The notes beneath the pieces were generated by a model. It saw only the letters and a program-made list of their open reading frames with translations. It searched no databases and had not been told where the DNA came from. A stretch of 64,000 nt of DNA from contig LFCN01000006.1 in assembly GCA_001189075.1 (NCBI GenBank), forward strand, positions 386,041-450,040, given 5' to 3'. A program made the position numbers and the translations under genes. Positions 9,053-62,171 of this stretch are shown here, in pieces; position 1 is the first letter of the stretch, and every line of letters begins with the position of its first letter. The DNA is from Parcubacteria bacterium C7867-004 (GTDB lineage: Bacteria > Patescibacteriota > Minisyncoccia > Phycocordibacterales > Phycocordibacteraceae).

Positions 9053-9936
9053 CTATGAAAACACTTGCTATAGACCTCGCTACCGTACGCGTCTCCGCGA
9101 TCCTCAACACCGCAAGCGGCAGCTGTGACGTTGAGGCTGAGCAGGTCATGAGAGATCTGCTTGCGGACGCGGGCGTTAAGAACGCGACTCTGTGGTGCGG
9201 GGACGCCGGTCACATGGAGCAAGCATTCAAAGAAGCGAAAGCGCTCGCTCCCGATATCCTTATCGTCCTTGGCGGAGACGGCACCATCCGTGCGGGAGCA
9301 GAGGCCTGCTCAAGCGAAGGACCGTACTTGATCCCGCTTCCGGGAGGCACTATGAATATGTTGCCGAAAGCGCTATACGGGGATCGTTCATGGCAAGAGG
9401 CTCTGCGCGAGACGCTCGCCAATCCGTCGGTTAAGTCGGTCTCGGGAGGAACGGTAGGCGGTCGACAGTTCTTCATCGCCGCGATTGCCGGTGCACCGAC
9501 CCTATGGGCGCATGCGCGCGAGGCGCTACGCGAGGGAGACATCGGCGCAGCGATCGAGAAGGGGGTGCACGCATTTCAGAACATGCTCGCTATGACCATC
9601 AGCTACACATTCGGAACAGAACACGCCGGAGAGGCGGCAGCGGTTGCGATTATCTGTCCGCTGATCTCGGAGGTTATGCATGACGAAGAGCGCACGCTCG
9701 AGGCATGCGCCATCAGCGTGGAGAACGCGGGAGAAGTGCTCGGCTTCTGGTCTACTGCGGCATTCGGCGCCTGGAGGGATGATGCGAACGTAACGATTAC
9801 GAAGACACGCTCGATAACGCTTTCAGCTGCAGAACATTTGCCACTTATCCTGGATGGCGAAGCGATGGATCTAGGTGCGGAAGTTACCATCACGTTCGTG
9901 CCGGAGGCATTCAAGGCGCTCGTCCCTGTTTCCTAG
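9049..9936 (+). CDS. diacylglycerol-kinase-family lipid kinase (DAGK_cat/YegS-like)
   Basis: ILIVLGGDGTIRAGAEA (GGDGT motif) and overall size fit the family. Confidence 0.6.
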   Translation: MTMKTLAIDLATVRVSAILNTASGSCDVEAEQVMRDLLADAGVKNATLWCGDAGHMEQAFKEAKALAPDILIVLGGDGTIRAGAEACSSEGPYLIPLPGGTMNMLPKALYGDRSWQEALRETLANPSVKSVSGGTVGGRQFFIAAIAGAPTLWAHAREALREGDIGAAIEKGVHAFQNMLAMTISYTFGTEHAGEAAAVAIICPLISEVMHDEERTLEACAISVENAGEVLGFWSTAAFGAWRDDANVTITKTRSITLSAAEHLPLILDGEAMDLGAEVTITFVPEAFKALVPVS

Positions 9937-11127: not shown

Positions 11128-12012
11128 ATGAGCTATCAGGTGCTGCTTTTCTATAAATACGTGACGATTAGTGACCCGGAAGCGCTCGCACAGCGCGTAC
11201 GGGAGCTTATCGCTACCCACGGGCTCAAGGGCCGCTGCATCATCGCTGAGGAGGGCATCAATGCCACGTTTGAGGGCGAGACTGAGGCTACGGAATCATT
11301 TGTTGCGGAATTCCTGCAGGATGCACGATTCAAGGACATGAAGGTGAAGCGTAGTGAGGGAGACGGGAAAGCCTTCGGGAAGGCGTACGTAAAAGTACGT
11401 GATGAGATCGTGGGTACGCACTTCGATAAGAAGATCGATCCGCGAGTACGTACGGCTCCGGCGATAACCCCTGAGGAACTTAAGAATTGGTATCAGGAAG
11501 AGAAGGACTTTGTCGTCATCGATATGCGCAACGACTACGAGTTCCAGTCAGGACACTTCAAGGGTTCGGTGAACCCAGGGCTTGGGAACTCGCGCGATCT
11601 GCCGGATGCTCTTCCTGCACTTGAGCAATACAAAGACAAGAAAGTCCTTACGGTCTGCACGGGCGGCATCCGTTGCGAAAAGATGTCGGCATTCCTGCTT
11701 GAGAACGGATTCAGCGATGTCTCGCAGCTCGAGAACGGCATGCACGGATACATGGAGAAGTATCCGGGAGAGGATTTCCTCGGGACGCTCTACACCTTCG
11801 ACAATCGCCTTACGATGGATTTCGGTGGGGAGCGTGAGATTGTTGGCCGGTGCAAGCTTTGTAACGAGAAGACCGAGACCTACGTGAACTGTGGCGATGA
11901 TTTCTGCCACCTGCATTTCCTCGTGTGCGATGCCTGCCAGAAGCCGGAAGGAGCGTTCTGCTCTCCTGCCTGCGAAGAAGCGGTGAAAGCTCGCGGATAT
12001 TCCCATGCCTAA
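11128..12012 (+). CDS. trhO: rhodanese-domain tRNA uridine(34) hydroxylase (UPF0176/YceA family)
   Basis: LLFYKY N-terminus, rhodanese active-site CTGGIRCEK, C-terminal Cys-rich tail. Confidence 0.75.
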   Translation: MSYQVLLFYKYVTISDPEALAQRVRELIATHGLKGRCIIAEEGINATFEGETEATESFVAEFLQDARFKDMKVKRSEGDGKAFGKAYVKVRDEIVGTHFDKKIDPRVRTAPAITPEELKNWYQEEKDFVVIDMRNDYEFQSGHFKGSVNPGLGNSRDLPDALPALEQYKDKKVLTVCTGGIRCEKMSAFLLENGFSDVSQLENGMHGYMEKYPGEDFLGTLYTFDNRLTMDFGGEREIVGRCKLCNEKTETYVNCGDDFCHLHFLVCDACQKPEGAFCSPACEEAVKARGYSHA

Positions 12013-13252
12013 GTCCCAGAACGCGTACGACGTTATCGTCGTCGGGGGAGGGGCCGCGGGAATGATGGCAGCAGCAACTAGTGCTGAACGCGGGAAGCGC
12101 GTACTCCTGCTCGAGAAGAATGCGGAGCTCGGGAAGAAGCTGTCGATATCGGGCGGTGGGCGCTGCAATATAACGAACGCGGAAGATGATGTGAAAGTGC
12201 TCCTCTCTAAGTTCGGGAAGGCCGAGCCATTCTTGTATTCGGCATTCTCAGAGTTCGGGACGCAGGAGACTTTCGCATTCTTCGATCGCCTTGAGTTGCC
12301 GCTTGTCATCCAGAAGAATAAGCGCGCGTTCCCGAAGACCGAGCGCGCCACTGACGTGGTGCGAGTACTTGAAGAGTACCTTGTAGAGAAAGGGGTTGAT
12401 ATCCGTCTCGAACTACCGGTCCAGCGCGTGAACGCACATGACGGAAAGATACGGTCGGTGCAGACCCAAGGATTCGAGTTCACGGCCGATTCGTACATCT
12501 TTGCTACCGGAGGAGTCTCGCATCCGGAAACGGGCTCGACCGGCGACGGCTTCAACTGGCTGCGGGATCTCGGGCATACGGTAGAAGAACCAACTCCGAC
12601 AATCGTTCCTCTAGCGGCTTCCGACAAATGGATCCCGAAACTCAAAGGGAAGACGCTTGAGGATGCGAAGATAACCTTCTTTCAGGATGGAGTACGGAAG
12701 TTCTCACAGAAAGGGAATATTCTGCTTACGCACTTCGGACTTTCAGGCCCCACTATTCTGAATCTCGCAGGGAGAGTACGCGAGCTTCTATACGGAGGAG
12801 AAGTTACTGCAGCGATCGATCTGTTCCCGAGTCTTGATCTGGGCATCCTCGACGCTAAGATCGTCGAACTGTTCGAAGCGAATAAGAACAAGCTCGTGAG
12901 AAACACGCTTCCGGAAATGCTTCCCAATGGCACGACAGATGTACTGCTCTCGCTTGTGCCGAGTCTCGATCCCGATACCAAGGTGCATAGCGTAACGAAG
13001 GAGCAACGTCGCGCGCTCATTGATCTACTGAAAGCACTTCCCGTCTCGATAGATGGACTCATGGGCTATGACCGAGCGGTGGTAGCTGATGGCGGTGTTC
13101 CGCTCGCTGAAGTCGATATGCGCACCATGCGATCGAACAAGGTGGAGAATTTGTTCATCATCGGCGATTTGCTCCATATCAGCCGACCCTCAGGCGGGTA
13201 CTCCCTCCAGCTTTGCTGGACGACGGGGTTCGTTGCGGGAGTGAACACATAG
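12005..13252 (+). CDS. HI0933-family FAD-dependent flavoprotein (YhiN-like)
   Basis: YDVIVVGGGAAGMMAA dinucleotide fold, GGGRCNITN motif of the HI0933 family. Confidence 0.75.
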   Translation: MPKSQNAYDVIVVGGGAAGMMAAATSAERGKRVLLLEKNAELGKKLSISGGGRCNITNAEDDVKVLLSKFGKAEPFLYSAFSEFGTQETFAFFDRLELPLVIQKNKRAFPKTERATDVVRVLEEYLVEKGVDIRLELPVQRVNAHDGKIRSVQTQGFEFTADSYIFATGGVSHPETGSTGDGFNWLRDLGHTVEEPTPTIVPLAASDKWIPKLKGKTLEDAKITFFQDGVRKFSQKGNILLTHFGLSGPTILNLAGRVRELLYGGEVTAAIDLFPSLDLGILDAKIVELFEANKNKLVRNTLPEMLPNGTTDVLLSLVPSLDPDTKVHSVTKEQRRALIDLLKALPVSIDGLMGYDRAVVADGGVPLAEVDMRTMRSNKVENLFIIGDLLHISRPSGGYSLQLCWTTGFVAGVNT

Positions 13253-51116: not shown

Positions 51117-51554
51117 GTACCTGTGCATAGTGCTTTATATAAGTGCTATCGTTAGGCTTTAGGATAGTTCCTGGAGGTACGGTCATGCGGGACACCCGCG
51201 AACTAACACCACCCCGGCCGTATGTCTCTCAGCCGGTCTCTCCGAATCCCACGTTCGACGGCTCGCTCGAGCATCTTCGCGAGAAGCTCTGCATTCCGAG
51301 GAGAATGAGTCGGAGATTCTTATTCTTCGTCGCGTTTACACTTGGAAACAGGCTTGACTCGTATCCGGAAAGCGCGAAGGAGTGGTCCGAACGAAACTTC
51401 CTGCGATATAGGGAATTCGGTTGGACGCCCGATTTTTTCTACGTCGCCTTCCGTGCCGCGCCCTCGCGAGCCGCAAAGCTTCGCGCCTTCTGGTAGGTCC
51501 GTCTCGGCGGGCCTTTTCATTTACGGCTTTCACGCCGAGCGGTACGATGGCTGT

Positions 51555-52811
51555 ATGCAGCGCGAAGACCTCAAAAAGTTCGACCTCCCTGACTGCCCCG
51601 GCGTGTATCTCTTTACGCACGGGAAGGGGAAGAATAAGAAGATCCTCTACGTCGGGAAGGCGACGTCCCTTCGTGATCGCGTGCGCTCCTATTTCGATAT
51701 CGATCTTATCGCGACCCGCGGTCCTCGGATTGTGGACATGGTCACTCGCGCCGATGGACTGATGCATGAGCCTACTCCCACCGTGCTTGAGGCCTTGGTG
51801 CGCGAGGCGGCTCTCATTCGCGAGCATATCCCGAGCGCGAACGCGATGGGCAAGGATGATAAGACGTTCCTCTATGCCGTTATAACGGACGAGGAGATAC
51901 CCCGCGTGCTCGCCATACGCGGCGCTGAGCTCGATTTCAAAGCAAAGAAGGTAATCATGACGGGCCTCAAGCTGAAAGCCATCCACGGGCCGTTCCCGTC
52001 CGGGTATCAGCTGCGCGAGGGACTCCGGCTCATACGGAAGATATTCCCGTTCTTTGATACGCCGAAGCCGGTTGGCGAGGGGAATCGGCATACGCAAGGG
52101 AAGATTGAATTCAATCGGCAGATCGGGCAGTATCCGCGCGATATGAATCGTTCGGGATACATGCGTTCGATACGGAATGTGTCACTCTTTCTTTCAGGAC
52201 GAGTGAAGACGCTTCGTGCGACGCTTACCCGCGATATGAAGCAGGCGGCAAAAGAAGAACGATTCGAGGACGCGGGAACTATCCGTCGGCAGCTGTTCGC
52301 GCTCGACCATATCCAGGATGTCTCGCTCATCAAGGAAGATCGAGGTGAAGATACGGGTCCGAGGCTTGAGGCATACGACACAGCCCATATCTCAGGCACG
52401 AACGCTATCGGCGTGATGTGTGTGGTTGAGAACGGCGTATCCGTGAAGCGTGACTATCGTACCTTCAAGATCCAAGGCCGGGGCGGAAAGTCCCTGAATG
52501 ACGACATCGCCTCGCTCAAGGAGATACTCTCGCGCAGGCTCGGGCATACCGAATGGCCGCTCCCGAAAGCGTTCGTGGTTGATGGTGGGAAGACCCATAA
52601 GAAAGCGGCGGAGGATGTATTGAAGGAAGTGGGTATCGGCATTCCAGTGGTTGCGGTTGTGAAGGATGAGAAGCATCGACCGCGTGAAGTGCTTGGGGGA
52701 CTCCGTGCGGGGGTGCCAGACGCTGATGCGGTTCTGGCAAATTCCGAAGCGCATCGCTTCTCTCTCGCCAATCACCGGAAGGCTCGGTCCCGCGCTATGC
52801 GCAAGGCGTAG
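51555..52811 (+). CDS. uvrC: excinuclease ABC subunit C, short form lacking C-terminal (HhH)2
   Basis: GIY-YIG (PGVYLFT...ILYVGKATSLRDRVRSY), UVR motif (FEDAGTIRRQLFAL), RNase-H-like endonuclease region. Ends at ~418 aa. Confidence 0.7.
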   Translation: MQREDLKKFDLPDCPGVYLFTHGKGKNKKILYVGKATSLRDRVRSYFDIDLIATRGPRIVDMVTRADGLMHEPTPTVLEALVREAALIREHIPSANAMGKDDKTFLYAVITDEEIPRVLAIRGAELDFKAKKVIMTGLKLKAIHGPFPSGYQLREGLRLIRKIFPFFDTPKPVGEGNRHTQGKIEFNRQIGQYPRDMNRSGYMRSIRNVSLFLSGRVKTLRATLTRDMKQAAKEERFEDAGTIRRQLFALDHIQDVSLIKEDRGEDTGPRLEAYDTAHISGTNAIGVMCVVENGVSVKRDYRTFKIQGRGGKSLNDDIASLKEILSRRLGHTEWPLPKAFVVDGGKTHKKAAEDVLKEVGIGIPVVAVVKDEKHRPREVLGGLRAGVPDADAVLANSEAHRFSLANHRKARSRAMRKA

Positions 52812-53228
52812 CTTGCGCAAACCCACTACAGGTATAGGATTGCTTCGGGTGGCCACTCATCGACTATTGATGAGTCGCTGGTCGTCCAGACAAAGGGCGC
52901 ATACAGGGGAGAAATAGCACATTTCCAGAAACAAAACCGCAGCGTGCATCTAGTCCGCGCACGGACGTCGCAGATCATTTCCAGGAGGTCCCTTCTGAGA
53001 AAACTGCATGCAATGCTGCTGTGCGACTGTCTTTATATCTGCTAGATATCTACAGGGGCTACAAGGCTTTCGGCTTCGGCCCACTTGCCGTGCCCAGTTT
53101 GATTGAACGCACACCGAGATGATCGGAACCGCGTATTGCTAGCAGTTGGTAGAGATTGCAGAGGCCAGGGACATTTCGTTCCTGGCCTTCGCTCATTTCA
53201 GGTATTGCCCTGCTATACTTCCTTCATC

Positions 53229-54203
53229 ATGCGTGGAACGGTCGTCGGAGTATTGCGGGGCGGTCCATCTAAGGAGCACGAAGTGTCGCTTGCGACCGGT
53301 CACGCCGTCATCACGAACCTTCCCGAGGACCGCTTCACGGTAAGGGATATTTACATAGACAAGGACGGTATCTGGCATGAGCGTGGGCGGCCCGTGATGC
53401 CGGCGAATGTGCTCCCCTCGATGGATGCGGTTGTTGTGGGGCTGCATGGGGAATACGGAGAGGATGGGGAAGTACAGAAGCTGCTTGAGCGGTTCGGTGT
53501 TCCCTACACCGGCTCGGACTCATTCGGTTCGTACCTCGCAATGCATAAGGTGCTTTCCAAGGAGCGCGCGAAGGAGATGGGACTGCTCACCCCGAAGTAT
53601 CGATTCATCGAACGAGCTGACGATGCAGAAGCTATTGCGCAAGACATCATCCGTTCGTTCCATCAGCCGGTTGTCGTAAAGCCGATTCGGTGGGGTTCTT
53701 CAGTTGGCATATCGATTGTCGGCGGATACCAGCCGGTGCATTCGGCGATCCTTGAGCTTCTTGAGGCTGGAGCAGGAGGAGTGCTCGTCGAGGAACTTAT
53801 TCGCGGTACGGAAGCTACGGCAGGCGTCGTTGAGGGTCTTCGCGGTGAAGAGCTCTATATGCTCCCGCCGATTGAGATCATCCCGCCCAACGGCAGCTTC
53901 TTTTCGTACGACGTGAAGTATTCGGGGGCTACAGAGGAGATCGTACCGGGCCGCTTCCAGAAGTACGTGCAGAACGACCTCATGAAAGCGGCAAAGACCA
54001 TGCACGAAGCACTCGGACTTAGGCATTATTCCCGCTCCGACTTTATCGTCTCTCCTAAGGGCATCTATTATCTCGAGACCAATACGCTTCCCGGCATGAC
54101 TAAGGAATCGCTTCTCCCTAAATCGCTCGCTGCCGTCGGCGTTTCGCTCCCCGACTTCCTTACGCACGTGGTTGATCTCGCGCTAACCGGAAAGAAACGA
54201 TGA
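53229..54203 (+). CDS. ddl: D-alanine--D-alanine ligase
   Basis: N-terminal GGPSKEHEVSL, ATP-grasp motifs, LETNTLPGMT near the C-terminus. Confidence 0.85.
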   Translation: MRGTVVGVLRGGPSKEHEVSLATGHAVITNLPEDRFTVRDIYIDKDGIWHERGRPVMPANVLPSMDAVVVGLHGEYGEDGEVQKLLERFGVPYTGSDSFGSYLAMHKVLSKERAKEMGLLTPKYRFIERADDAEAIAQDIIRSFHQPVVVKPIRWGSSVGISIVGGYQPVHSAILELLEAGAGGVLVEELIRGTEATAGVVEGLRGEELYMLPPIEIIPPNGSFFSYDVKYSGATEEIVPGRFQKYVQNDLMKAAKTMHEALGLRHYSRSDFIVSPKGIYYLETNTLPGMTKESLLPKSLAAVGVSLPDFLTHVVDLALTGKKR

Positions 54204-54532
54204 GCGAGTACAGTGACAAGAAGTGCGTACCCTGCGAAGGCGGATTTCCGGCACTGACGCTCGCGCAGGCGCAGGATCTCATGGAGCATGCACCAGGCTG
54301 GAGCCTGAACGAGGCAGGTACTGAGATCCATCGAGACTATGCGTTTCCAGACTTCGCTACCGCGCTTTCGTTCGTGAACGAGGTAGGTGCGCTTGCCGAG
54401 GAGGAGGGTCATCATCCCGATATCACGCTTAGCTGGGGCAAGGTAGGAATTACCCTCACGACGCATTCAATAGGGGGACTCTCTGAGAACGATATTATCC
54501 TTGCGGCCAAGATAGGGCTTTTGCAGCCGTAA
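54200..54532 (+). CDS. pterin-4a-carbinolamine dehydratase
   Basis: EEGHHPD catalytic motif. ~110 aa. Confidence 0.8.
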   Translation: MSEYSDKKCVPCEGGFPALTLAQAQDLMEHAPGWSLNEAGTEIHRDYAFPDFATALSFVNEVGALAEEEGHHPDITLSWGKVGITLTTHSIGGLSENDIILAAKIGLLQP

Positions 54533-54565
54533 CGGGTATGGTATAAATCATACGTTCCCGAATAG

Positions 54566-54638
54566 GGGCCGTTAGCTCAGTTGGTAGAGCATCTCATTTG
54601 CAATGAGAGGGTCGCAGGTTCGAATCCTGTACGGTCCA
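54566..54638 (+). tRNA. tRNA-Ala (anticodon UGC), G3:U70 present, no encoded CCA
   Basis: Hand-folded: acceptor gggccgt/acggtcc with G3:U70, D arm gctc-agttggta-gagc, anticodon loop uuUGCaa, T arm gcagg-ttcgaat-cctgt, discriminator A. Confidence 0.85.
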
Positions 54639-54672
54639 CATTTGTTCACGAAGTCAAGGTTTCCGTCATTCC

Positions 54673-54710
54673 GTATTGGCGCGCTTAAGTTTCGGGAGGT
54701 TCTAATCTCA
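54673..54710 (+). repeat. left imperfect direct repeat flanking AT-rich islet
   Basis: gtattggcgcgcttaagtttcgggaggttctaatctca compared with 56901-56938 gtattggccgcgattcaatgaggggagttctaatacga. The gtattggc(c)gcg and gg(g)ag(g)ttctaat blocks are shared. Confidence 0.45.
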
Positions 54711-56900
54711 CAGAACCTAAAAACGATAAGAATGGTATTTTATGCTCATTCCTAGGATGAGAATCTTAAAATATTTTCGGCAAAAGTTTGGAGATAGAAG
54801 GCAACAAAAAGTTGTACCTTCTCTTAACGAGAAAGTTGTATGTATTACAACGCGAGACAACTACATTCTTCCCGCTCTCGTTTCCTCATATTTTTCCTCA
54901 AAAACTGAATACTTTAGTTTATTTGTATTTCCCAATATTGATGCTCCTTACGAGGAGTATATTGAAATGAGTGGGGAGAAGTTTGTGGCAAAGCTCATAG
55001 GGCGTGAAGCAAAGGTTCTTTTTAACAATGCTTTCTTCAAACTTAAGCCCAAGCGCTACCTCTTAGTAGGTCTAAATGAAGCAGAGAAAACCTACTTTGA
55101 TTCTCTCTCTCCAAAGAAGAAGATATTTATAGATAACGAAACTGAAATCCAAGAGAAACTCAAGTCTCTTAAGAAGAAACCGAGACGAGAAATCCGTTGC
55201 AGGGAGTCTGACTTACTAAAGGGTTTGTACATAGCAAAACAGAAGAAACTTGCATTGGTAATAGACGAGAACGCAAAGGCAATAAATGTTAGGGATTTCC
55301 TTAGTGTGAGCACAGGAATTCTGGTTATTGAAGAAGATAAGAAAGCAACAGATATTGTCGCTATTAACTTAGCTCACGCTCTTAATTCTGATATTGCGAT
55401 TGTTGAACCATTCAACGAAGACAGAAAGGAGCTAACCACGCTCCAGAAAGACATCTATAAATGGAAGAAAGGTGGAGATAACGAAGCTCATGCGAGAGTG
55501 ATTAAACTCTTGGGAGACAGATTAAACGGAATAGATTTTAGCCCATATCACTACGCAACATTCTTCACAGACGGACTTCCATACTCGTTGGTATTGGAAA
55601 AACTATCCATTTCTTACATCAACCCAAATCTGAGATGTGATTTGTTTATATTCAATGAACTTTTTTCTCAATATGACAAACAAACAGAGGGGGTAATCGT
55701 TTTCTCTCCTGAAGAATTTGGACAGAAAGAGGAGACTCCTTTCGTTGTAGCAACTCTTAAGAAGTTAGGATTCTATGTAAAAGAACTCATTGGCAAGAAC
55801 GCAACTGTACATAATTTTGAGCATTATTCTCAACATTATCCTTACGATTTAATGCACATCTGTAGCCATGGTGGACAAACAGATGGATATTTCGCAATAG
55901 AGAAATTTACGGACAGAGATGGTAAAGAACATACCGTCGAGTATGAGGAGGTTGTTGGCTTCTCTCCTGTGCCAGGGAAAGATCTAATAGCAGTTAGCAG
56001 AAAAGCATTCTTTAAGAGATTTGATGGTTTTGAGTGGATGAGCCCAGAACTCAAAGCTCAGCATATCCCGAGCTATATCTTCGAAGACATGACCCGCAAT
56101 CTTTTTTCAGGAGATGGCGGAGAGAAAGCGCAACGATTTCCTGCTAACTACCCCATAGCAAACTCTTGCCATATAAAGTGTTACGACAGTATCCATCAAG
56201 GCACAATGCAGTCTATTGCTTTGTACAATCATCCCATTATTTTCAATAATACCTGCTGTTCGTGGCATGAGATTTCAAACTTCTTTATTACTGCTGGCGC
56301 AAGAGGATATATTGGTACTCTTTGGTCAATTAAGAATATAAACGCCGTGAGAGCAGCGGCTTTTTTCTACTCAAAAATTCACGAGCTCAACATTGCTGCT
56401 CTATGCCGTTTAATGAATACCTTCCTTAAGGGAACGTCAGACGAGGGAGTGTATATGTACTGGGGATTACCTTTTTCAAAAGTTTATTTACCAACTTCAG
56501 AAAATAGTCGACTCAAAATTTTGGGAGAACTATTTTATGGTCTATGGAGATGGGTTGGTCATTATCGCTCCTTGCCAGAGGGAGAAGTGAGGAAAAACAC
56601 GAATGACGTGGTTCGTTTCATTCACAGTGAGATTGCAGGCAACTTCAAGCAGGAAGATTTAAAAGGCCTGATTGGAGACAAGGCATATAAAAAGTTGGAG
56701 ACCACTGTTGCTGAGGTACAAGCCAAAGCACCAAAAGAGAGCACAACTTCAGACACTGAAGCTTCTAATCTTGAAAGAGGAGCTATAGACCTTGGTACTG
56801 AATACCGAGGGAAGGAGGTTCTAATCTCCGAGCGTCTCTAGGCTCTCAAGCCCATTTTGATCCTTCAGACCATCCCACGAGTCCACTAGCCTAAGGAAAT
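54711..56900 (+). mobile_element. 2.2-kb AT-rich genomic islet (~38% GC vs ~58% flanks) inserted 3' of tRNA-Ala; no integrase
   Basis: Abrupt compositional shift visible in sequence, tRNA-adjacent position, flanking imperfect direct repeats, single cargo ORF. Confidence 0.55.
54742..56841 (+). CDS. caspase-like (CHAT/peptidase clan CD) His-Cys protease domain protein with ~330-aa unknown N-terminal region
   Basis: LMHICSHGGQTDGYF (His block) then ~125 aa later IIFNNTCCSWHEIS (Cys block). Spacing and context resemble the caspase/CHAT catalytic dyad. Lys/Ile/Asn/Phe-rich, AT-rich codons. Confidence 0.45.
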   Translation: MLIPRMRILKYFRQKFGDRRQQKVVPSLNEKVVCITTRDNYILPALVSSYFSSKTEYFSLFVFPNIDAPYEEYIEMSGEKFVAKLIGREAKVLFNNAFFKLKPKRYLLVGLNEAEKTYFDSLSPKKKIFIDNETEIQEKLKSLKKKPRREIRCRESDLLKGLYIAKQKKLALVIDENAKAINVRDFLSVSTGILVIEEDKKATDIVAINLAHALNSDIAIVEPFNEDRKELTTLQKDIYKWKKGGDNEAHARVIKLLGDRLNGIDFSPYHYATFFTDGLPYSLVLEKLSISYINPNLRCDLFIFNELFSQYDKQTEGVIVFSPEEFGQKEETPFVVATLKKLGFYVKELIGKNATVHNFEHYSQHYPYDLMHICSHGGQTDGYFAIEKFTDRDGKEHTVEYEEVVGFSPVPGKDLIAVSRKAFFKRFDGFEWMSPELKAQHIPSYIFEDMTRNLFSGDGGEKAQRFPANYPIANSCHIKCYDSIHQGTMQSIALYNHPIIFNNTCCSWHEISNFFITAGARGYIGTLWSIKNINAVRAAAFFYSKIHELNIAALCRLMNTFLKGTSDEGVYMYWGLPFSKVYLPTSENSRLKILGELFYGLWRWVGHYRSLPEGEVRKNTNDVVRFIHSEIAGNFKQEDLKGLIGDKAYKKLETTVAEVQAKAPKESTTSDTEASNLERGAIDLGTEYRGKEVLISERL

Positions 56901-56938
56901 GTATTGGCCGCGATTCAATGAGGGGAGTTCTAATACGA
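56901..56938 (+). repeat. right imperfect direct repeat flanking AT-rich islet
   Basis: See left repeat; about 28 of 38 positions are shared. Confidence 0.45.
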
Positions 56939-57071
56939 TGTACTAAAAACCACCCCAGAGGACAAGGCGCTGTAATCAAACAGTTTCGTTTACCTGTCCG
57001 CTCACGTACATTGACGAACGTTCAAGTCGTTATACTCTTACTGCTATAGCACTATCATCTCTGTACGACCT

Positions 57072-57545
57072 ATGAGCTTCGATAAGATTCCTACTGCGCG
57101 CCCTACACAGGCAACTGAATCGTTGCGGGAACCTATTCAAGAAGAGCTCGCTGCAAGGCTCGACGAGGTCGCAAAAATGAACAAGATGTCGCTTGAGGAG
57201 CTTCGGAGTGTACGACGCAGGGAAGACAGAGAACTCCAAACGACCTTTTTTGAAGGAACCATTGCTGGTGTACGTGTTGTTGCATGGAAAGATAAAGCTC
57301 AGACTGCGGCCCCGTGGAGCTCAATAGGAACGAACAGTTATATCTATCGTGCAACGGTGGATGGTCTTGAGGTTGCGTCGGATCTCGATAAGCCACAAAA
57401 ACTCTATTTAAAACTGTTGATTGCTAATAGCGATTATTCCCGCACATATCAAGAGTCCGGTATACCGATGCCCGAGTCCCCCGACGCAGAAGCCTTGGCT
57501 GACCAGGTACTTGCAACTGGTGTTCCAACGGAAGATCCTGAATAG
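57072..57545 (+). CDS. hypothetical protein (157 aa)
   Basis: Clean ORF. No motif recognised. Confidence 0.4.
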   Translation: MSFDKIPTARPTQATESLREPIQEELAARLDEVAKMNKMSLEELRSVRRREDRELQTTFFEGTIAGVRVVAWKDKAQTAAPWSSIGTNSYIYRATVDGLEVASDLDKPQKLYLKLLIANSDYSRTYQESGIPMPESPDAEALADQVLATGVPTEDPE

Positions 57546-57571
57546 GCTTTTCGTATGCAACCGGGCTTTCT

Positions 57572-58150
57572 ATGACCAACCGACCGCCAAGCCGCCAACC
57601 TATGCCGACTGATGCCGTACAAGTGTTCAAGGGCATCCTTTTTGACGTCTATCAATGGCAGCAGGAGCTGTTCGATGGCTCGTTCGCTACCTTCGAGAAG
57701 CTCAGCCGGAACGATTCGGCGGTTATTATCCCGATACTCCCGAACGGCAAGCTGTTGCTTGCGTATGATGAGCAGCCGGGACGCGACCCAGTGATAACGT
57801 TCCCGGGCGGCCAGGGAGAGGAAGGCGAGAGTTCGGAAGTAATGGCTCGTCGCGAACTGCTTGAAGAGACCGGATATGAGGCGGACGAACTCATACTGCT
57901 TCGTGCCAGCCAGCCTTCCTCGAAGATAGACTGGGCGATCTATACCTTCATCGCTCGCGGTCTCCGGAAAGTGCAGGAAGCAGAGCTAGACGCCGGGGAG
58001 CGCATTACGCTGCGCGAGGTGACGCTCGACGAGCTCATCGACATGGCCGAGGATCCTCTGTTCCAGAACCGGGAACTCGTTATCGACCTGGTGAAGGCGA
58101 GGTATGATACAGAGGCACGCGCTTCCCTCGAGAAGCTTTTATTCGGCTAG
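57572..58150 (+). CDS. NUDIX hydrolase
   Basis: Nudix box GGQGEEGESSEVMARRELLEETGY. Confidence 0.75.
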   Translation: MTNRPPSRQPMPTDAVQVFKGILFDVYQWQQELFDGSFATFEKLSRNDSAVIIPILPNGKLLLAYDEQPGRDPVITFPGGQGEEGESSEVMARRELLEETGYEADELILLRASQPSSKIDWAIYTFIARGLRKVQEAELDAGERITLREVTLDELIDMAEDPLFQNRELVIDLVKARYDTEARASLEKLLFG

Positions 58151-58159
58151 GCATATCCC

Positions 58160-58567
58160 ATGAAGAATCTCACGCTCGCGGCTATTTCAATCCCGGTGCT
58201 CCTCGTACTCGATCTGCTCTGGATCGGCGTTATTGCCGCAGGTTTTTACAAGGCCGAGCTCGGTCCTCTGCTACGCCCAGACATCGTCTGGCAGGCGGCG
58301 GTCTTGTTCTATGTGATCTATGCGTTCGGACTCGCCTTCTTCGTTGTGCGACCGGCACTCGAGAGCGGCCAGGCATTCAAGCGCACGGCGCTCGCGGGCG
58401 CGTTCTTTGGCCTCGTTGCCTTCGCGACCTGTGACCTCACCAATCTCGCCACCATCGCGGGCTGGTCCACGCTCGAGACCTTCGTCGACATGGGGTGGGG
58501 CGTGATAGCGACCACCATCGCAACTACGGTCTCGTATTTTGCAGGAAAGAAGCTTCTTGGCTACTAA
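58160..58567 (+). CDS. DUF2177-like 4-TM membrane protein
   Basis: Four hydrophobic helices, ~135 aa. Confidence 0.4.
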   Translation: MKNLTLAAISIPVLLVLDLLWIGVIAAGFYKAELGPLLRPDIVWQAAVLFYVIYAFGLAFFVVRPALESGQAFKRTALAGAFFGLVAFATCDLTNLATIAGWSTLETFVDMGWGVIATTIATTVSYFAGKKLLGY

Positions 58568-58571
58568 TCGT

Positions 58572-59042
58572 ATGCGTCTGCGCTCATTCTTGGCGCTCGT
58601 TGGATTCGTCGGGGTATCTCTTGCTGCCGGTTTCCTCGGATCAATGGCGGTTGTGGGCAGTGTGAACGGCTGGTACGCAACGCTTATAGCACCGGCTTGG
58701 ACACCGCCGAACGCGGTCTTCGGACCAGTGTGGACGATCCTGTACGTTCTTATGGGTAGCGCGGCATACCTCGTCTCGCGCTCGCCAAGAATAGGCAAGG
58801 TCTTCGCTATCTGGCTTTTCCTTGCGCACCTCCTCTTGAACGCGTTCTGGAGCATCGCGTTTTTCGGCATGCACGAGATTTTGCTCTCGTTGGTTGTTAT
58901 CGTCCTACTGCTCTCGATTGTAATCGTGTTAGCAGCTTTGTTTTATAGATATTCAAGAACTGCGGGGTATCTCATGATTCCGTACGTGCTCTGGGTGGCC
59001 TACGCAACGACGCTCAATATCGGCTTTCTCGTTTTGAATTAA
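58572..59042 (+). CDS. tspO: TspO/MBR family tryptophan-rich sensory protein
   Basis: WYATLIAPAWTPPNAVFGPVWTILYVLMG and five TM helices. Trp-rich. Confidence 0.75.
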   Translation: MRLRSFLALVGFVGVSLAAGFLGSMAVVGSVNGWYATLIAPAWTPPNAVFGPVWTILYVLMGSAAYLVSRSPRIGKVFAIWLFLAHLLLNAFWSIAFFGMHEILLSLVVIVLLLSIVIVLAALFYRYSRTAGYLMIPYVLWVAYATTLNIGFLVLN

Positions 59043-59074: not shown

Positions 59075-60373
59075 ATGCGCACCGATATCGTCCATCCGGG
59101 AGCTGATAAGCTCCGCTACGAGATCCGGCGCATCGTCGAGGTAGCTAAATCCGTACAGGCGCTCGGCACCCCGATTATCTGGGAGAATATCGGCGACCCG
59201 GTAGCAAAAGGCGAGCAGGTGCCGGAATGGATAAAGGAGTACGTGAAGAACGCAGCGAGCGAGAACGCTTCGTTCGGCTACTCACCGACGCAGGGTCTCG
59301 ACGTCGCACGCGACTACATCCGCGATGAGCGGAACCTTGAAGACGGTATCAACATAACTTCTGACGACATCCTCTTCTTCAACGGCCTCGGGGACGCTAT
59401 CTCGACGCTCTACGGGAACCTGCACCCAAAAGCGCGCGTTATAGGACCGAATCCGGCGTACCCCACGCATTCCTCAGCCGAAGCCGCGCATGCGGACTCC
59501 GCACATATCACGTACAAACTAGATCCGGCAAACGGCTGGAAACCGGACCTAGAGGATCTACGCACAAAGATAGAGGCGAACCCTGACATTGCCGGCATCC
59601 TCATCATCAATCCGGATAACCCGACCGGTTTCGTGTATCCGGAAGAAACGCTGCGCGAGATGGTCGCAATCGCGAAGGAGCACAACCTCTTCATGATCTC
59701 GGATGAGATCTACTCGAACCTCGCATACGCCGGGAGCGGCATGAAGAAACTCGCCTCCGTTATCGGAGACGTTCCCGGTATCGCCATGCGCGGCATCTCG
59801 AAGGAGTTTCCGTGGCCGGGCGCACGCTGCGGCTGGGTGGAGTTCTATAACCGGGACAAGGACGACTCGTTCGACCGGTACGCCCGCTCTCTGCTCGATT
59901 CGAAGATGCTCGAGGTCTGCTCGACTACGCTTCCTCAGGCGGTCCTGCCGAGGGTAATGGGGGATTCGAGATACTATCCGTACCTCGACGATCGGGTCGC
60001 AAACTATGCCCGGAAGTCTGCAAAGGCGGTTGAGATACTCTCATCCATTCCTGAACTTGTCATTCATCCAGCACAGGGTGCCTTCTATATGACTGCAGTC
60101 TTCGCAGAAGGATCACTTACCGATACTCAGACACTTTCCGTTACTCCCGAAGCAGAAGCGGTTATCAATCCGCATCTAGCGGATGCGAGACCGGATCAGC
60201 GCTTCGTGTACTACCTCCTTGCCTCAACGGGAATCTGCATAGTCCCGCTTTCGCTCGGGTTCAATTCGGATCTGAACGGTTTCCGCTTCACGCTCCTGGA
60301 GTCGGATGAAGGGAAGTTCGAACAGATCGTATCGACGATCAGAGATTCTATCCAGACGTATCTCGCCTCATAG
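59075..60373 (+). CDS. class I/II PLP-dependent aminotransferase
   Basis: Fold-type I layout (about 430 aa) and the family's N-terminal pattern. A Lys-containing SKEF segment may be the PLP site. Confidence 0.65.
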   Translation: MRTDIVHPGADKLRYEIRRIVEVAKSVQALGTPIIWENIGDPVAKGEQVPEWIKEYVKNAASENASFGYSPTQGLDVARDYIRDERNLEDGINITSDDILFFNGLGDAISTLYGNLHPKARVIGPNPAYPTHSSAEAAHADSAHITYKLDPANGWKPDLEDLRTKIEANPDIAGILIINPDNPTGFVYPEETLREMVAIAKEHNLFMISDEIYSNLAYAGSGMKKLASVIGDVPGIAMRGISKEFPWPGARCGWVEFYNRDKDDSFDRYARSLLDSKMLEVCSTTLPQAVLPRVMGDSRYYPYLDDRVANYARKSAKAVEILSSIPELVIHPAQGAFYMTAVFAEGSLTDTQTLSVTPEAEAVINPHLADARPDQRFVYYLLASTGICIVPLSLGFNSDLNGFRFTLLESDEGKFEQIVSTIRDSIQTYLAS

Positions 60374-62100: not shown

Positions 62101-62171
62101 GGGCCTATAGTGAAGCGGTATCACGCATCCATGGCATGGATGAAGTCGGGGTTCGACTCCCCGTAGGTCCA
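62101..62171 (+). tRNA. tRNA-Ala (anticodon GGC), G3:U70 present, no encoded CCA
   Basis: Hand-folded: acceptor gggccta/taggtcc with G3:U70, D arm gtga-agcggta-tcac, anticodon loop auGGCau, T arm cgggg-ttcgact-ccccg, discriminator A. Confidence 0.8.

Follow-up and report, generated by a model that had tools for sequence, protein, structure and literature searches.

In this study we analyzed a 64,000-nucleotide stretch of the genome of Parcubacteria bacterium C7867-004 (the whole stretch is referred to below as the window), in which an AT-rich element at positions 54640-56969 directly follows a tRNA-Ala(UGC) gene and carries a single gene, encoding a 699-aa protein with a CHAT protease domain. 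The element is probably a horizontally acquired single-gene cassette, belonging to a family of small cassettes located at tRNA-Ala, whose cargo in this case would be a CHAT-type conflict or anti-phage effector. Both tRNA-linked islets or cassettes and stand-alone CHAT effectors are known kinds of systems, of which the element is a variant. The new observation, apparently undescribed so far, is a conserved, recombinase-free frame that occupies the tRNA-Ala site in six Paceibacteria genomes with different cargo.

Insertion at tRNA-Ala and the conserved cassette frame

The element was compared with 80 loci syntenic with the window, retrieved through the Ddl protein (48-81% identity to the Ddl of the window); the loci fetched, 175 in total, are denoted by L and a number. 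A search of all 175 loci with the 12-mer GGAGGTTCTAAT gave three matches, all of them downstream of tRNA-Ala in Ddl-syntenic loci. Over 76 nt the left end (LE) of the element shares 91% identity with L073, and over 53 nt 94% with L022 (blastn); it is also present in L047, L032 and L065 (blastn, nhmmer and alignment). The right end (RE) is 72–80% identical to L065, L032, L073, L022 and L047 (blastn; nhmmer E values of 1e-24 to 1e-35). With the frame profiles, the window copy gave nhmmer E values of 1.8e-37 (LE) and 4.4e-33 (RE); this copy is itself included in the seed alignment, and the independent support comes from the pairwise blastn matches to the five other genomes. In all six genomes LE and RE are found as a pair, in the same orientation as the tRNA and 0.75-2.3 kb apart.

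The six cargos enclosed by these ends are mutually unrelated. They comprise ORFs of 229 aa (L073), 282 and 72 aa (L022), 101 and 212 aa (L047), 173 aa (L032) and 282 aa (L065), as well as the CHAT ORF of the window. All are co-oriented with the tRNA, and the GC content of the cassettes is 0.38-0.44, compared with 0.47-0.55 for the loci. No Pfam or PADLOC match was obtained for the cargos other than CHAT, i.e. five of the six are without a known domain; several of them resemble small membrane proteins by eye. The core motif described below was not found beside CHAT genes at other loci, which indicates that the frame is not tied to the CHAT gene.

The cargo is bounded by a direct repeat, termed here the core (copies B1 and B2; Table 1). 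Alignment of the six cassettes revealed that conservation ends a few bases past B1 and resumes exactly at B2, with unrelated sequence in between. The core is located 58-59 nt past the end of tRNA-Ala and ends 68-69 nt past it; in L047, L032 and L065 these distances are counted from a displaced 3' fragment of the tRNA (the core of L065 being slightly closer). In four of the six, B2 is followed at a spacing of ~109 nt by a third, weaker copy (B3). RE terminates in the family consensus GATGTACTAATGACCAC, represented in the window by GATGTACTAAAAACCAC. In four cassettes the stop codon of the cargo gene abuts or overlaps B2. The ORF of the window reads through B2 and ends 10 nt later, which fits the non-conserved C-terminal tail of its product.

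None of 2000 shuffles reached the exact 15-mer pair B1/B2. The initial annotation, made from the letters of the window alone, had described another, imperfect repeat, in which 54673-54706 aligns with 56901-56934 at 26 of 35 positions if two gaps of 1 nt are allowed. This repeat also exceeds chance (2/2000 shuffles score as high), but the limits of the cargo are set by the B1/B2 pair (starting at 54695 and 56814), which had been overlooked. The bracketing repeats are above chance and mark conserved ends of the element. In addition, a dyad with 7-bp inverted arms around an 8-bp spacer, read from the sequence, spans the junction between LE and the cargo; the motif TTCT...AGAA is present at the same spacing in 5/6 cassettes; L047, the exception, has it displaced by one base.

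The hosts of the frame are distant from the window (Ddl 56-72% identical), and the five closest relatives (Ddl 72-81%) lack both LE and RE. A seventh genome, L052, contains a left end that is divergent and has its core at +61. The displaced tRNA-Ala 3' fragments that precede LE in L047, L032 and L065 are 13-17 nt long and are separated from the real tRNA by other DNA. It is a known pattern that newer tRNA-targeting insertions push older ones outward (bioRxiv 10.1101/2020.12.28.424599).

Other candidate functions of the ends were considered and rejected: (i) a sigma-70 promoter formed by the conserved blocks was not called by the promoter scan (TTGGCG-N19-TCTAAT, with a long spacer), (ii) a structured RNA in RE, or in LE and RE joined, obtained RNAalifold energies of -4.45 and -5.7 kcal/mol with little covariation, and Rfam recognized only the tRNA, and (iii) a small peptide encoded in RE, for which an ATG-led frame of 15 codons exists in three copies, is contradicted by L073, which has no ATG and a stop. 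Neither LE nor RE matched any viral contig.

The tRNA-Ala(UGC) gene and the AT-rich segment right after it, both recognized initially, were confirmed: the GC content is 0.52-0.60 upstream of the segment and 0.37-0.44 from ~54650 to 56600. Recovery of the GC content had been placed after ~56940; instead, values of 0.46-0.51 persist until ~57570, and this softer right boundary is caused by the ORF that follows (orf157; GC 0.494, GC3 0.443). The CHAT ORF (GC 0.396, GC3 0.381) differs strongly from the average of the 57 long ORFs of the window (0.557±0.033 and 0.631±0.067, respectively), and is the only one of them with a GC content more than 2 sd low.

Neither the CHAT ORF nor orf157 gave a tblastn match in any of the 80 syntenic relatives. 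In the closest informative relative, L016 (Ddl 81% identical), only 81 bp separate tRNA-Ala from the DUF2177 gene, and the order that follows the tRNA (DUF2177-TspO-o368-o191-tRNA-Ala(ggc)-o280-o147) is that of the window minus the CHAT, orf157, NUDIX and aminotransferase genes. The NUDIX gene is host DNA, since it adjoins DUF2177 in another relative (L039). Because CHAT is absent from the relatives at the same position, we conclude, in line with the original proposal, that the segment was acquired by insertion and is not ancestral. It shares with tRNA-linked islands the position next to a tRNA 3' end, a deviant composition and absence from close relatives. The stretch behind tRNA-Ala(tgc) differs in nearly every relative and often contains low-GC ORFs without a Pfam match.

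Table 1. Features of the tRNA-Ala(UGC) locus (positions within the window)
Feature	Position	Strand	Remarks
uvrC-like gene	51342-52811		
ddl	53103-54203		
Pterin-4a-carbinolamine dehydratase gene (pcd)	54200-54532		
tRNA-Ala(UGC)	54566-54639	+	Anchor of the insertion site; ARAGORN; Rfam tRNA 72.9 bits; synteny in 80 loci
Left end (LE)	54640-54709	+	69-70 nt from the first base after the tRNA; contains GTATTGGCGCG (54673-54683); ends in B1
Core B1, GGAGGTTCTAATCTC	54695-54709	+	Left copy of the cargo-bounding direct repeat
Dyad AGGTTCT-AATCTCAC-AGAACCT	54697-54718		Spans the LE/cargo junction
CHAT ORF, 699 aa	54742-56841	+	Cargo gene
N-terminal region, aa 24-300	54811-55641	+	Predicted tandem small alpha/beta modules, family-specific
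CHAT (caspase-haemoglobinase fold) domain, ~aa 310-585	55669-56496	+	His376 codon 55867-55869; Cys505 codon 56254-56256
C-terminal motif, aa 680-689	56779-56808		
Core B2, GGAGGTTCTAATCTC	56814-56828	+	Right copy; overlaps the last codons of the ORF; first conserved bases of RE
Right end (RE)	56814-56969	+	~155 nt; contains GTATTGGCCGCG (56901-56912) and core-like B3 (56920-56934)
ORFan of 157 aa (orf157)	57072-57545	+	Outside the LE/RE unit, before NUDIX
DUF2177	58160-58567		
TspO	58539-59042		
Class I/II aminotransferase	59075-60373		

The CHAT protease and its family

As initially described, the 699-aa ORF with His and Cys blocks is the lone cargo, no other ORF being present between the two ends. 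Its product, 100% identical to AB199_02705 of Parcubacteria bacterium C7867-004, is classified by profile and predicted fold as a CHAT/clan CD cysteine protease with the putative dyad His376/Cys505. The Pfam profile CHAT (PF12770) matched residues 332-403 with 29 bits (gathering score 24, E 9.6e-7), and the same profile matched all 38 aligned homologues (32-55% identical to the query; best E 7.5e-12), in which residues H372, H376, G377, G378, C505 and S507 are invariant. The His block (H372-I-C-S-H376-G-G) and the Cys block (N-N-T-C505-C-S-W) are 129 residues apart; the spacing of ~125 and the label H378 for the catalytic His, as given at first, have to be corrected accordingly.

In an AlphaFold2 model built from the 38 homologues (mean pLDDT 87.1, pTM 0.88), H376 follows strand 370-373 and C505 lies at the end of strand 499-506, as in the caspase arrangement, with a beta-hairpin-rich insert between them; behind the CHAT domain the model has a helical bundle (589-662) and then a short strand at the C-terminus. 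The model and the alignment display both the alpha/beta fold of clan CD, in which the catalytic His comes after strand 3 and the Cys after strand 4, and the His-Gly/Cys dyad, from which protease activity is predicted, and they agree with the caspase/CHAT-like assignment made initially. Sequence-level relatives among solved structures were found neither with the single sequence nor with the family profile (chance matches to haemagglutinin had E>0.2), and the whole protein has no NCBIfam match.

The N-terminal region, in which no motif could be placed at the outset, gave no Pfam, NCBIfam or PADLOC match over ~300 aa, and no catalytic motif is evident in it. Its predicted alpha/beta fold matches CWB2-like repeats, and is neither TPR nor SAVED. 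We infer that this region is a sensor, regulatory or oligomerisation part. A search for other effector fusions with the N-terminal alignment alone returned none, which is probably due to the word-index limit.

The public annotation of AB199_02705 gives a protein of 624 aa starting at Met76 (54967), and the stretch affected (54742-54969) encodes a conserved N-terminal part of the family, with C34, S48, Y57 and F61 near-invariant. Since the homologues align from residue 24 onward, the alignments place the true start at Met1 (54742) or at Met6, the ATG at 54757, giving 699 or 694 aa.

At the opposite end of the protein, a motif (L)ERG(V/A)(I/M)DL follows a variable linker. It was observed in 25 of 164 full-length members, all among the higher-scoring relatives, at ~10 times the background rate, and is modelled in the window protein as a beta-strand (681-690, ERGAIDLGTE). 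It may serve as a pseudosubstrate or be cleaved in Arg-type autoprocessing.

An exhaustive phmmer search of 1.84 billion cluster representatives yielded 572 matches at E<=1e-3 and 189 at E<=1e-30, corresponding below E 1e-30 to ~190 clusters at 50% identity. Nearly all matches are 610-670 aa long and collinear with the query from residue 24. Their sources, which include Parcubacteria, Terriglobia, Bacillus sp. JJ1773 and Chryseobacterium, are patchily distributed across phyla, and among viral contigs there was one distant match (23% identity). The GC content of the gene is below that of its flanks in 58/66 loci, and in 30 of them by >0.05.

The genetic neighbourhood of the family was analyzed by clustering in 95 loci, after which 148 neighbours belonging to 64 distinct loci were scanned with Pfam and PADLOC. 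No conserved partner gene emerged, as no Pfam family occurred in more than 2 of the 148 neighbours. The gene stands alone near a ParE/RHH pair in Terriglobia, follows SNF2-NOV_C-PIN_12 in Chryseobacterium and follows the type I restriction-modification (RM) genes hsdR-hsdM-hsdS in Bacillus. Five groups of loci have it on or near large-serine-recombinase elements: such recombinases flank the gene in L013/14 and L117 and are close by in L134/L137, and in L008/9 and L011/12 the gene is situated 7-16 nt downstream of an OLD/AriA/GajA-like ATPase gene, on serine-recombinase elements abutting tRNA-Asn or tRNA-Ala. One of these elements, in the Paceibacteria-like L012, is inserted at tRNA-Ala(tgc) directly after ddl, i.e. 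at the same locus as in the window. In L112, L155 and L118 the gene lies <300 nt from a tRNA. The family thus has the profile of a mobile, self-sufficient accessory gene, which is compatible with a role in defence and is not proof of it.

The ATPases mentioned above have the architecture AAA_15-AAA_21(-TOPRIM) (L008, 4209-5984; L011, 3739-5325), and AriAB was the best PADLOC match among the ATPase neighbours (E 3e-53); the OLD-like ATPase seems more likely to be a defence gene of its own, stacked with CHAT, than a partner of it, although operon coupling is conceivable. In L112 (2324-3224, 6634-8995) a lone family member has tRNA-Pro 145 nt before it and tRNA-Leu 87 nt behind it, a further case of one gene bracketed by tRNAs; an array of 11 tRNA genes is 3.4 kb away.

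Judging from the fold, the distribution of the family and analogy with known systems, the CHAT protein would most likely act as a single-protein conflict or anti-phage effector. Its N-terminal part may keep the protease inactive until an invader-derived cue is sensed, whereupon the activated enzyme would cut proteins of the host or the virus, in the manner of Borvo, SAVED-CHAT, Craspase and type IV Thoeris. The system most similar in logic is Borvo (BovA), a single-gene CHAT defence system with presumed abortive infection (bioRxiv 10.1101/2024.10.26.620412), in which one gene likewise encodes a C-terminal CHAT protease domain without an obligatory partner; the N-terminal region is, however, different and 0/38 members match, which places the window protein in a separate family. 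With SAVED-CHAT (type III CRISPR/CBASS), Craspase TPR-CHAT (Csx29) and the type IV Thoeris effector it has the fold in common. Unlike SAVED-CHAT, it has no Pfam domain in residues 1-330, no SAVED, and no cyclase or conserved neighbour. Unlike Craspase, it has an N-terminus other than TPR and no Cas7-11; TPR_2 was found in 2/148 neighbours, and no cas genes were among the 25 most frequent neighbour families listed. The type IV Thoeris effector has an operon partner with a TIR domain, in contrast to the single-gene cassette, and TIR was likewise not among these 25 families. Other members of clan CD (gingipains, separase, metacaspases) are 7-12% identical to the window protein, which is bacterial and differs from them in having no signal peptide by eye, a long beta-hairpin insert and a different N-terminal region.

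Proposed mobility of the cassette and alternative explanations

A cargo bounded by direct repeats inside a conserved frame may be the footprint of site-specific recombination. The cassettes of 0.75-2.3 kb, found in at least six Paceibacteria genomes, hold unrelated cargo within the LE/RE frame, delimited by a T-arm-like core repeat of 11-15 nt (GGTTCTAATCT). According to the mechanism we propose, a circular cassette with one core site would recombine with the core site in the frame. The cassette core, if reassembled from its cassette-side halves, would correspond to the dyad of Table 1 and resemble the core site of a recombinase. The expected circular junction would join GGGAAGGAGGTTCTAATCTC to ACAGAACCTAAAAACG, and the expected empty site would join TTTCGGGAGGTTCTAATCTC to CGAGCGTCTCTAGGC. 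Since none of the six cassettes contains a recombinase gene, the enzyme would be encoded elsewhere and act in trans, the candidates being serine recombinases encoded at the same tRNA-Ala.

The absence of an integrase from the segment, noted initially, was confirmed: its gene list includes no recombinase, and tblastn with three serine recombinases gave no match in the window (tyrosine recombinases were not searched for window-wide). In the relatives, large serine recombinase genes lie against the same tRNA-Ala; those of L012, L038 and L052 are intact, and that of L054 is truncated where its contig ends. C-terminal serine recombinase remnants abut this tRNA in L017, L018, L019, L045, L053, L055 and L070, and decayed recombinase elements are therefore common at the locus. 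The recombinase ORF of L052 runs through the core-like GGTTCTAAT at +61 (codons G-I-L-E-P) into the tRNA. The notion that LE is the vestigial 3' end of such a gene is speculative: with the tRNA part excluded, only the core matches L052 (E 7).

The cassettes resemble tRNA-linked additive islands, or tycheposons, in their position next to a tRNA, their outward displacement with partial tRNA copies (L047, L032, L065), their small cargo and their streamlined hosts. In contrast, additive islands encode their own tyrosine recombinase and have partial tRNA repeats, while the six cassettes have no recombinase, non-coding conserved ends and a T-arm-like core. With integron cassettes and CALINs they share one or two genes, the lack of their own recombinase, a fixed platform, unrelated cargo and a stop codon at or over the core (4/6). 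They differ from integrons in that (i) the cores are direct repeats instead of inverted R''/R', (ii) there is no attC-like structure and no IntI, (iii) each locus contains one cassette and no array, and (iv) the anchor is a tRNA gene. The serine-recombinase elements of L012, L038 and L052 occupy the same ddl-tRNA-Ala locus, and that of L012 carries a CHAT homologue and an OLD-like ATPase; the cassette of the window differs from them in containing neither a recombinase gene nor what is left of one.

Several observations weigh against a mobile cassette with a defensive cargo. As regards mobility, no empty LE-RE frame, circular form or cognate recombinase was found, the dyad is perfect in the window copy only, the left end was present in only 7/81 genomes, which is a small sample, and the static picture would be no different if cargo were exchanged between conserved flanks by homologous recombination. 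As regards defence, there was no homologue in 72,556 plasmids or 50,697 phage records, none of the 38 family members matched any PADLOC model (2023 models) at E<=0.01, and recognisable defence neighbours occur at a minority of the family loci. Moreover, in L010 the gene resides among housekeeping genes with an ECF sigma gene directly upstream, and the PADLOC profile of BovA matched the window protein only at E 0.01 (12.9 bits, 66 residues round the His block). Of the stand-alone effector envisaged in the initial annotation, the part that stands is a lone gene, often low in GC compared with its flanks and sometimes beside RM or OLD-like genes or on recombinase elements at tRNAs; its role in abortive infection is still conjecture in view of the PADLOC result.

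The same annotation suggested that the element may be a decayed or minimal islet. In the case of decay, an element with an integrase would have entered the tRNA-Ala gene at its 3' end, duplicated part of the tRNA and later lost its integrase and all else except CHAT, and the repeats would be worn att scars. The serine recombinase elements, intact or as remnants, at this locus, the CHAT homologue on the L012 element at tRNA-Ala after ddl and the displaced 13-17-nt tRNA fragments before LE in L047, L032 and L065 are in favour of such a course. The core indeed resembles the T-arm of the tRNA, as had been noticed (10/11 positions; AGGTTCTAATC vs AGGTTCGAATC), but the likeness of the left end taken alone is not above chance (179/1000 shuffles). 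A collinear likeness of RE to the 3' half of the tRNA was reached by 6/1000 shuffles for the window and 35/1000 for L073, and was not significant for the other four copies, i.e. four of the six right ends resemble the tRNA no better than chance. Local alignment of the tRNA with positions 54000-59000 revealed no tRNA fragment at the right border and gave only a 12/13 match inside the TspO gene, which was rejected as an att repeat; the suggested att-like duplication of the tRNA 3' end is thus not demonstrable. Furthermore, the segment contains no recombinase remnant, random decay would not leave six cassettes with the same ends and core spacing and with the cargo cut at the core, and serine recombinases are not known to make long direct repeats. 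Loss of an integrase from an islet therefore fits less well than cargo in a conserved integrase-less frame, and we consider it unlikely.

About as unlikely is a CHAT protein that serves outside immunity, either as a regulatory or housekeeping protease that processes sigma/anti-sigma factors, or as the toxic half of an addiction module stabilising the cassette. The CHAT domain of DdvA processes a sigma/anti-sigma pair, and the ECF sigma gene in L010, sigma-70 domains in 2/148 neighbours, the lack of PADLOC matches and the absence of known defence neighbours from most family loci would all suit such a function. On the other hand, the 64 distinct loci contain no conserved partner or substrate gene, the family is patchy across phyla with a GC content mostly below that of its flanks, its members occur on recombinase elements and beside RM or OLD-like genes, and the gene is dispensable, being absent from the 80 close relatives.

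The frame might also have no dedicated mobility, LE and RE being conserved non-coding sequences of the host, for example the trailer of the tRNA, a promoter, a terminator or a regulatory element, around a hypervariable slot whose content is replaced by homologous exchange with DNA of other Paceibacteria that have these flanks. This would account for the constant chromosomal position and orientation of LE and RE, for cargo that is co-oriented with the tRNA as if using its transcription, and for the lack of a known recombinase or circular form. It agrees poorly with the distribution of the frame, since the five closest relatives are devoid of LE/RE and distant ones (Ddl 56-72%) have them at 72-94% nt identity. 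Nor does flank-mediated replacement need an exact 15-nt core repeat bounding the cargo, and the promoter scan, the RNA-structure predictions and Rfam gave no support for host functions of the ends. This explanation appears somewhat less probable still, and neither it nor a decayed islet explains the exact core-bounded cargo as well as a recombining cassette. Finally, an artefact of assembly or binning, by which low-GC DNA was placed beside the tRNA and the repeats arose by chance, is conceivable for a metagenome-assembled genome with an abrupt GC shift, but is highly improbable considering the same frame and tRNA-Ala junction in five independent assemblies, the repeats that exceed all or nearly all shuffles, and the 685,965-bp contig on which synteny resumes past the insert.

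Taken together, the cassette and its cargo allow a more far-reaching, tentative interpretation, to which we assign a lower likelihood than to the cassette itself. In Paceibacteria, members of the Candidate Phyla Radiation (CPR), the frame would represent a platform for cassette acquisition that is specific to this group, anchored at tRNA-Ala and integron-like in its logic, though related to integrons neither in sequence nor in structure; it would use a T-arm-like core of 11-15 bp and a recombinase acting in trans, possibly one of the serine recombinases directed at this tRNA. The CHAT family (~650 aa) would be a new single-protein antiviral protease, with its triple alpha/beta N-terminal region as a novel type of sensor and, in the closest clade, a conserved ERGV(I/M)DL tail serving as a pseudosubstrate or autoprocessing site. 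Acquisition of accessory genes by the ~0.7-Mb genomes of Parcubacteria/Paceibacteria has been little described. If the proposed mechanism is true, the frame is a concrete, testable route of gene gain in the CPR and supplies ultra-small genomes with accessory or defence genes; the LE/RE site may trade defence genes, and the frame offers a way to harvest candidate conflict genes. The CHAT family is widespread, stand-alone and uncharacterised in every library searched, and, if defensive, would join Borvo as the second caspase-like system made up of one gene, its sensor region being different.

Neighbouring genes and other observations at the locus

The order uvrC-ddl-(pcd)-tRNA-Ala(tgc) is kept in most of the 80 relatives. 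Downstream of orf157 the window contains the NUDIX, DUF2177, TspO and aminotransferase genes, and the order continues to tRNA-Ala(GGC) at 62101. The only match of orf157 among 5.8 billion proteins was orf157 itself, and no Pfam match was obtained. As it has no homologue anywhere and is positioned outside RE, it was rejected as co-cargo; the segment it occupies separates RE from the conserved NUDIX gene, is the second one specific to this strain and does not belong to the LE/RE unit. Either orf157 is another piece of foreign DNA, or the ORF evolves fast or is spurious.

If the first start codon is taken for each, the ORFs of DUF2177 and TspO have 29 nt in common. The two genes are also adjacent in L016 and L017, and in reverse order in L023 and L047; they probably constitute a conserved operon, as the same pair is adjacent in these four loci. 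The class I/II aminotransferase gene, situated between TspO and a 368-aa ORF on the minus strand, has a normal GC content. It is absent at that position from the closest relatives L016 and L017 and adjoins the same 368-aa ORF in L024; its presence or absence is a second point at which the interval between the two tRNA-Ala genes varies.

In the close relative L017, the variable stretch behind tRNA-Ala(tgc) harbours an abortive infection gene, HEPN_AbiU2 (11494-12174; GC 0.376), which suggests that this tRNA-Ala hotspot collects defence-type genes.

Another type of conserved sequence, whose core GGTTCGATAG lies at +61, was observed after tRNA-Ala in L017 (9012-9299), L070, L019, L018, L055, L045 and L053; identity among L017, L070 and L019 is 86-94%. 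This sequence is the remaining C-terminal part of a large serine recombinase gene that reads into the tRNA; over 96 aa it shares 56% aa identity with the recombinase of L012.

Partial copies of tRNA genes were also detected. In L012, a degenerate copy of the tRNA-Ala 5' part (551-576; 26/28 positions, two 1-nt gaps) is located 48 nt upstream of the intact tRNA-Ala (624-697), and in L013 a 12-nt copy of the tRNA-Ser 5' end lies 67 nt beyond that tRNA; both are possibly scars of 5'-side recombination. An inverted copy of the tRNA-Ala 3' end, GG(G/A)CCGTACAGGATTCGAA, follows a terminator-like hairpin ~45-85 nt after tRNA-Ala in L018 (~9120-9145), L045, L055, L025, L064 and L047. It was not called as a tRNA by ARAGORN, and may be the scar of an inverted att site or mark where a convergent tRNA-like gene ends.

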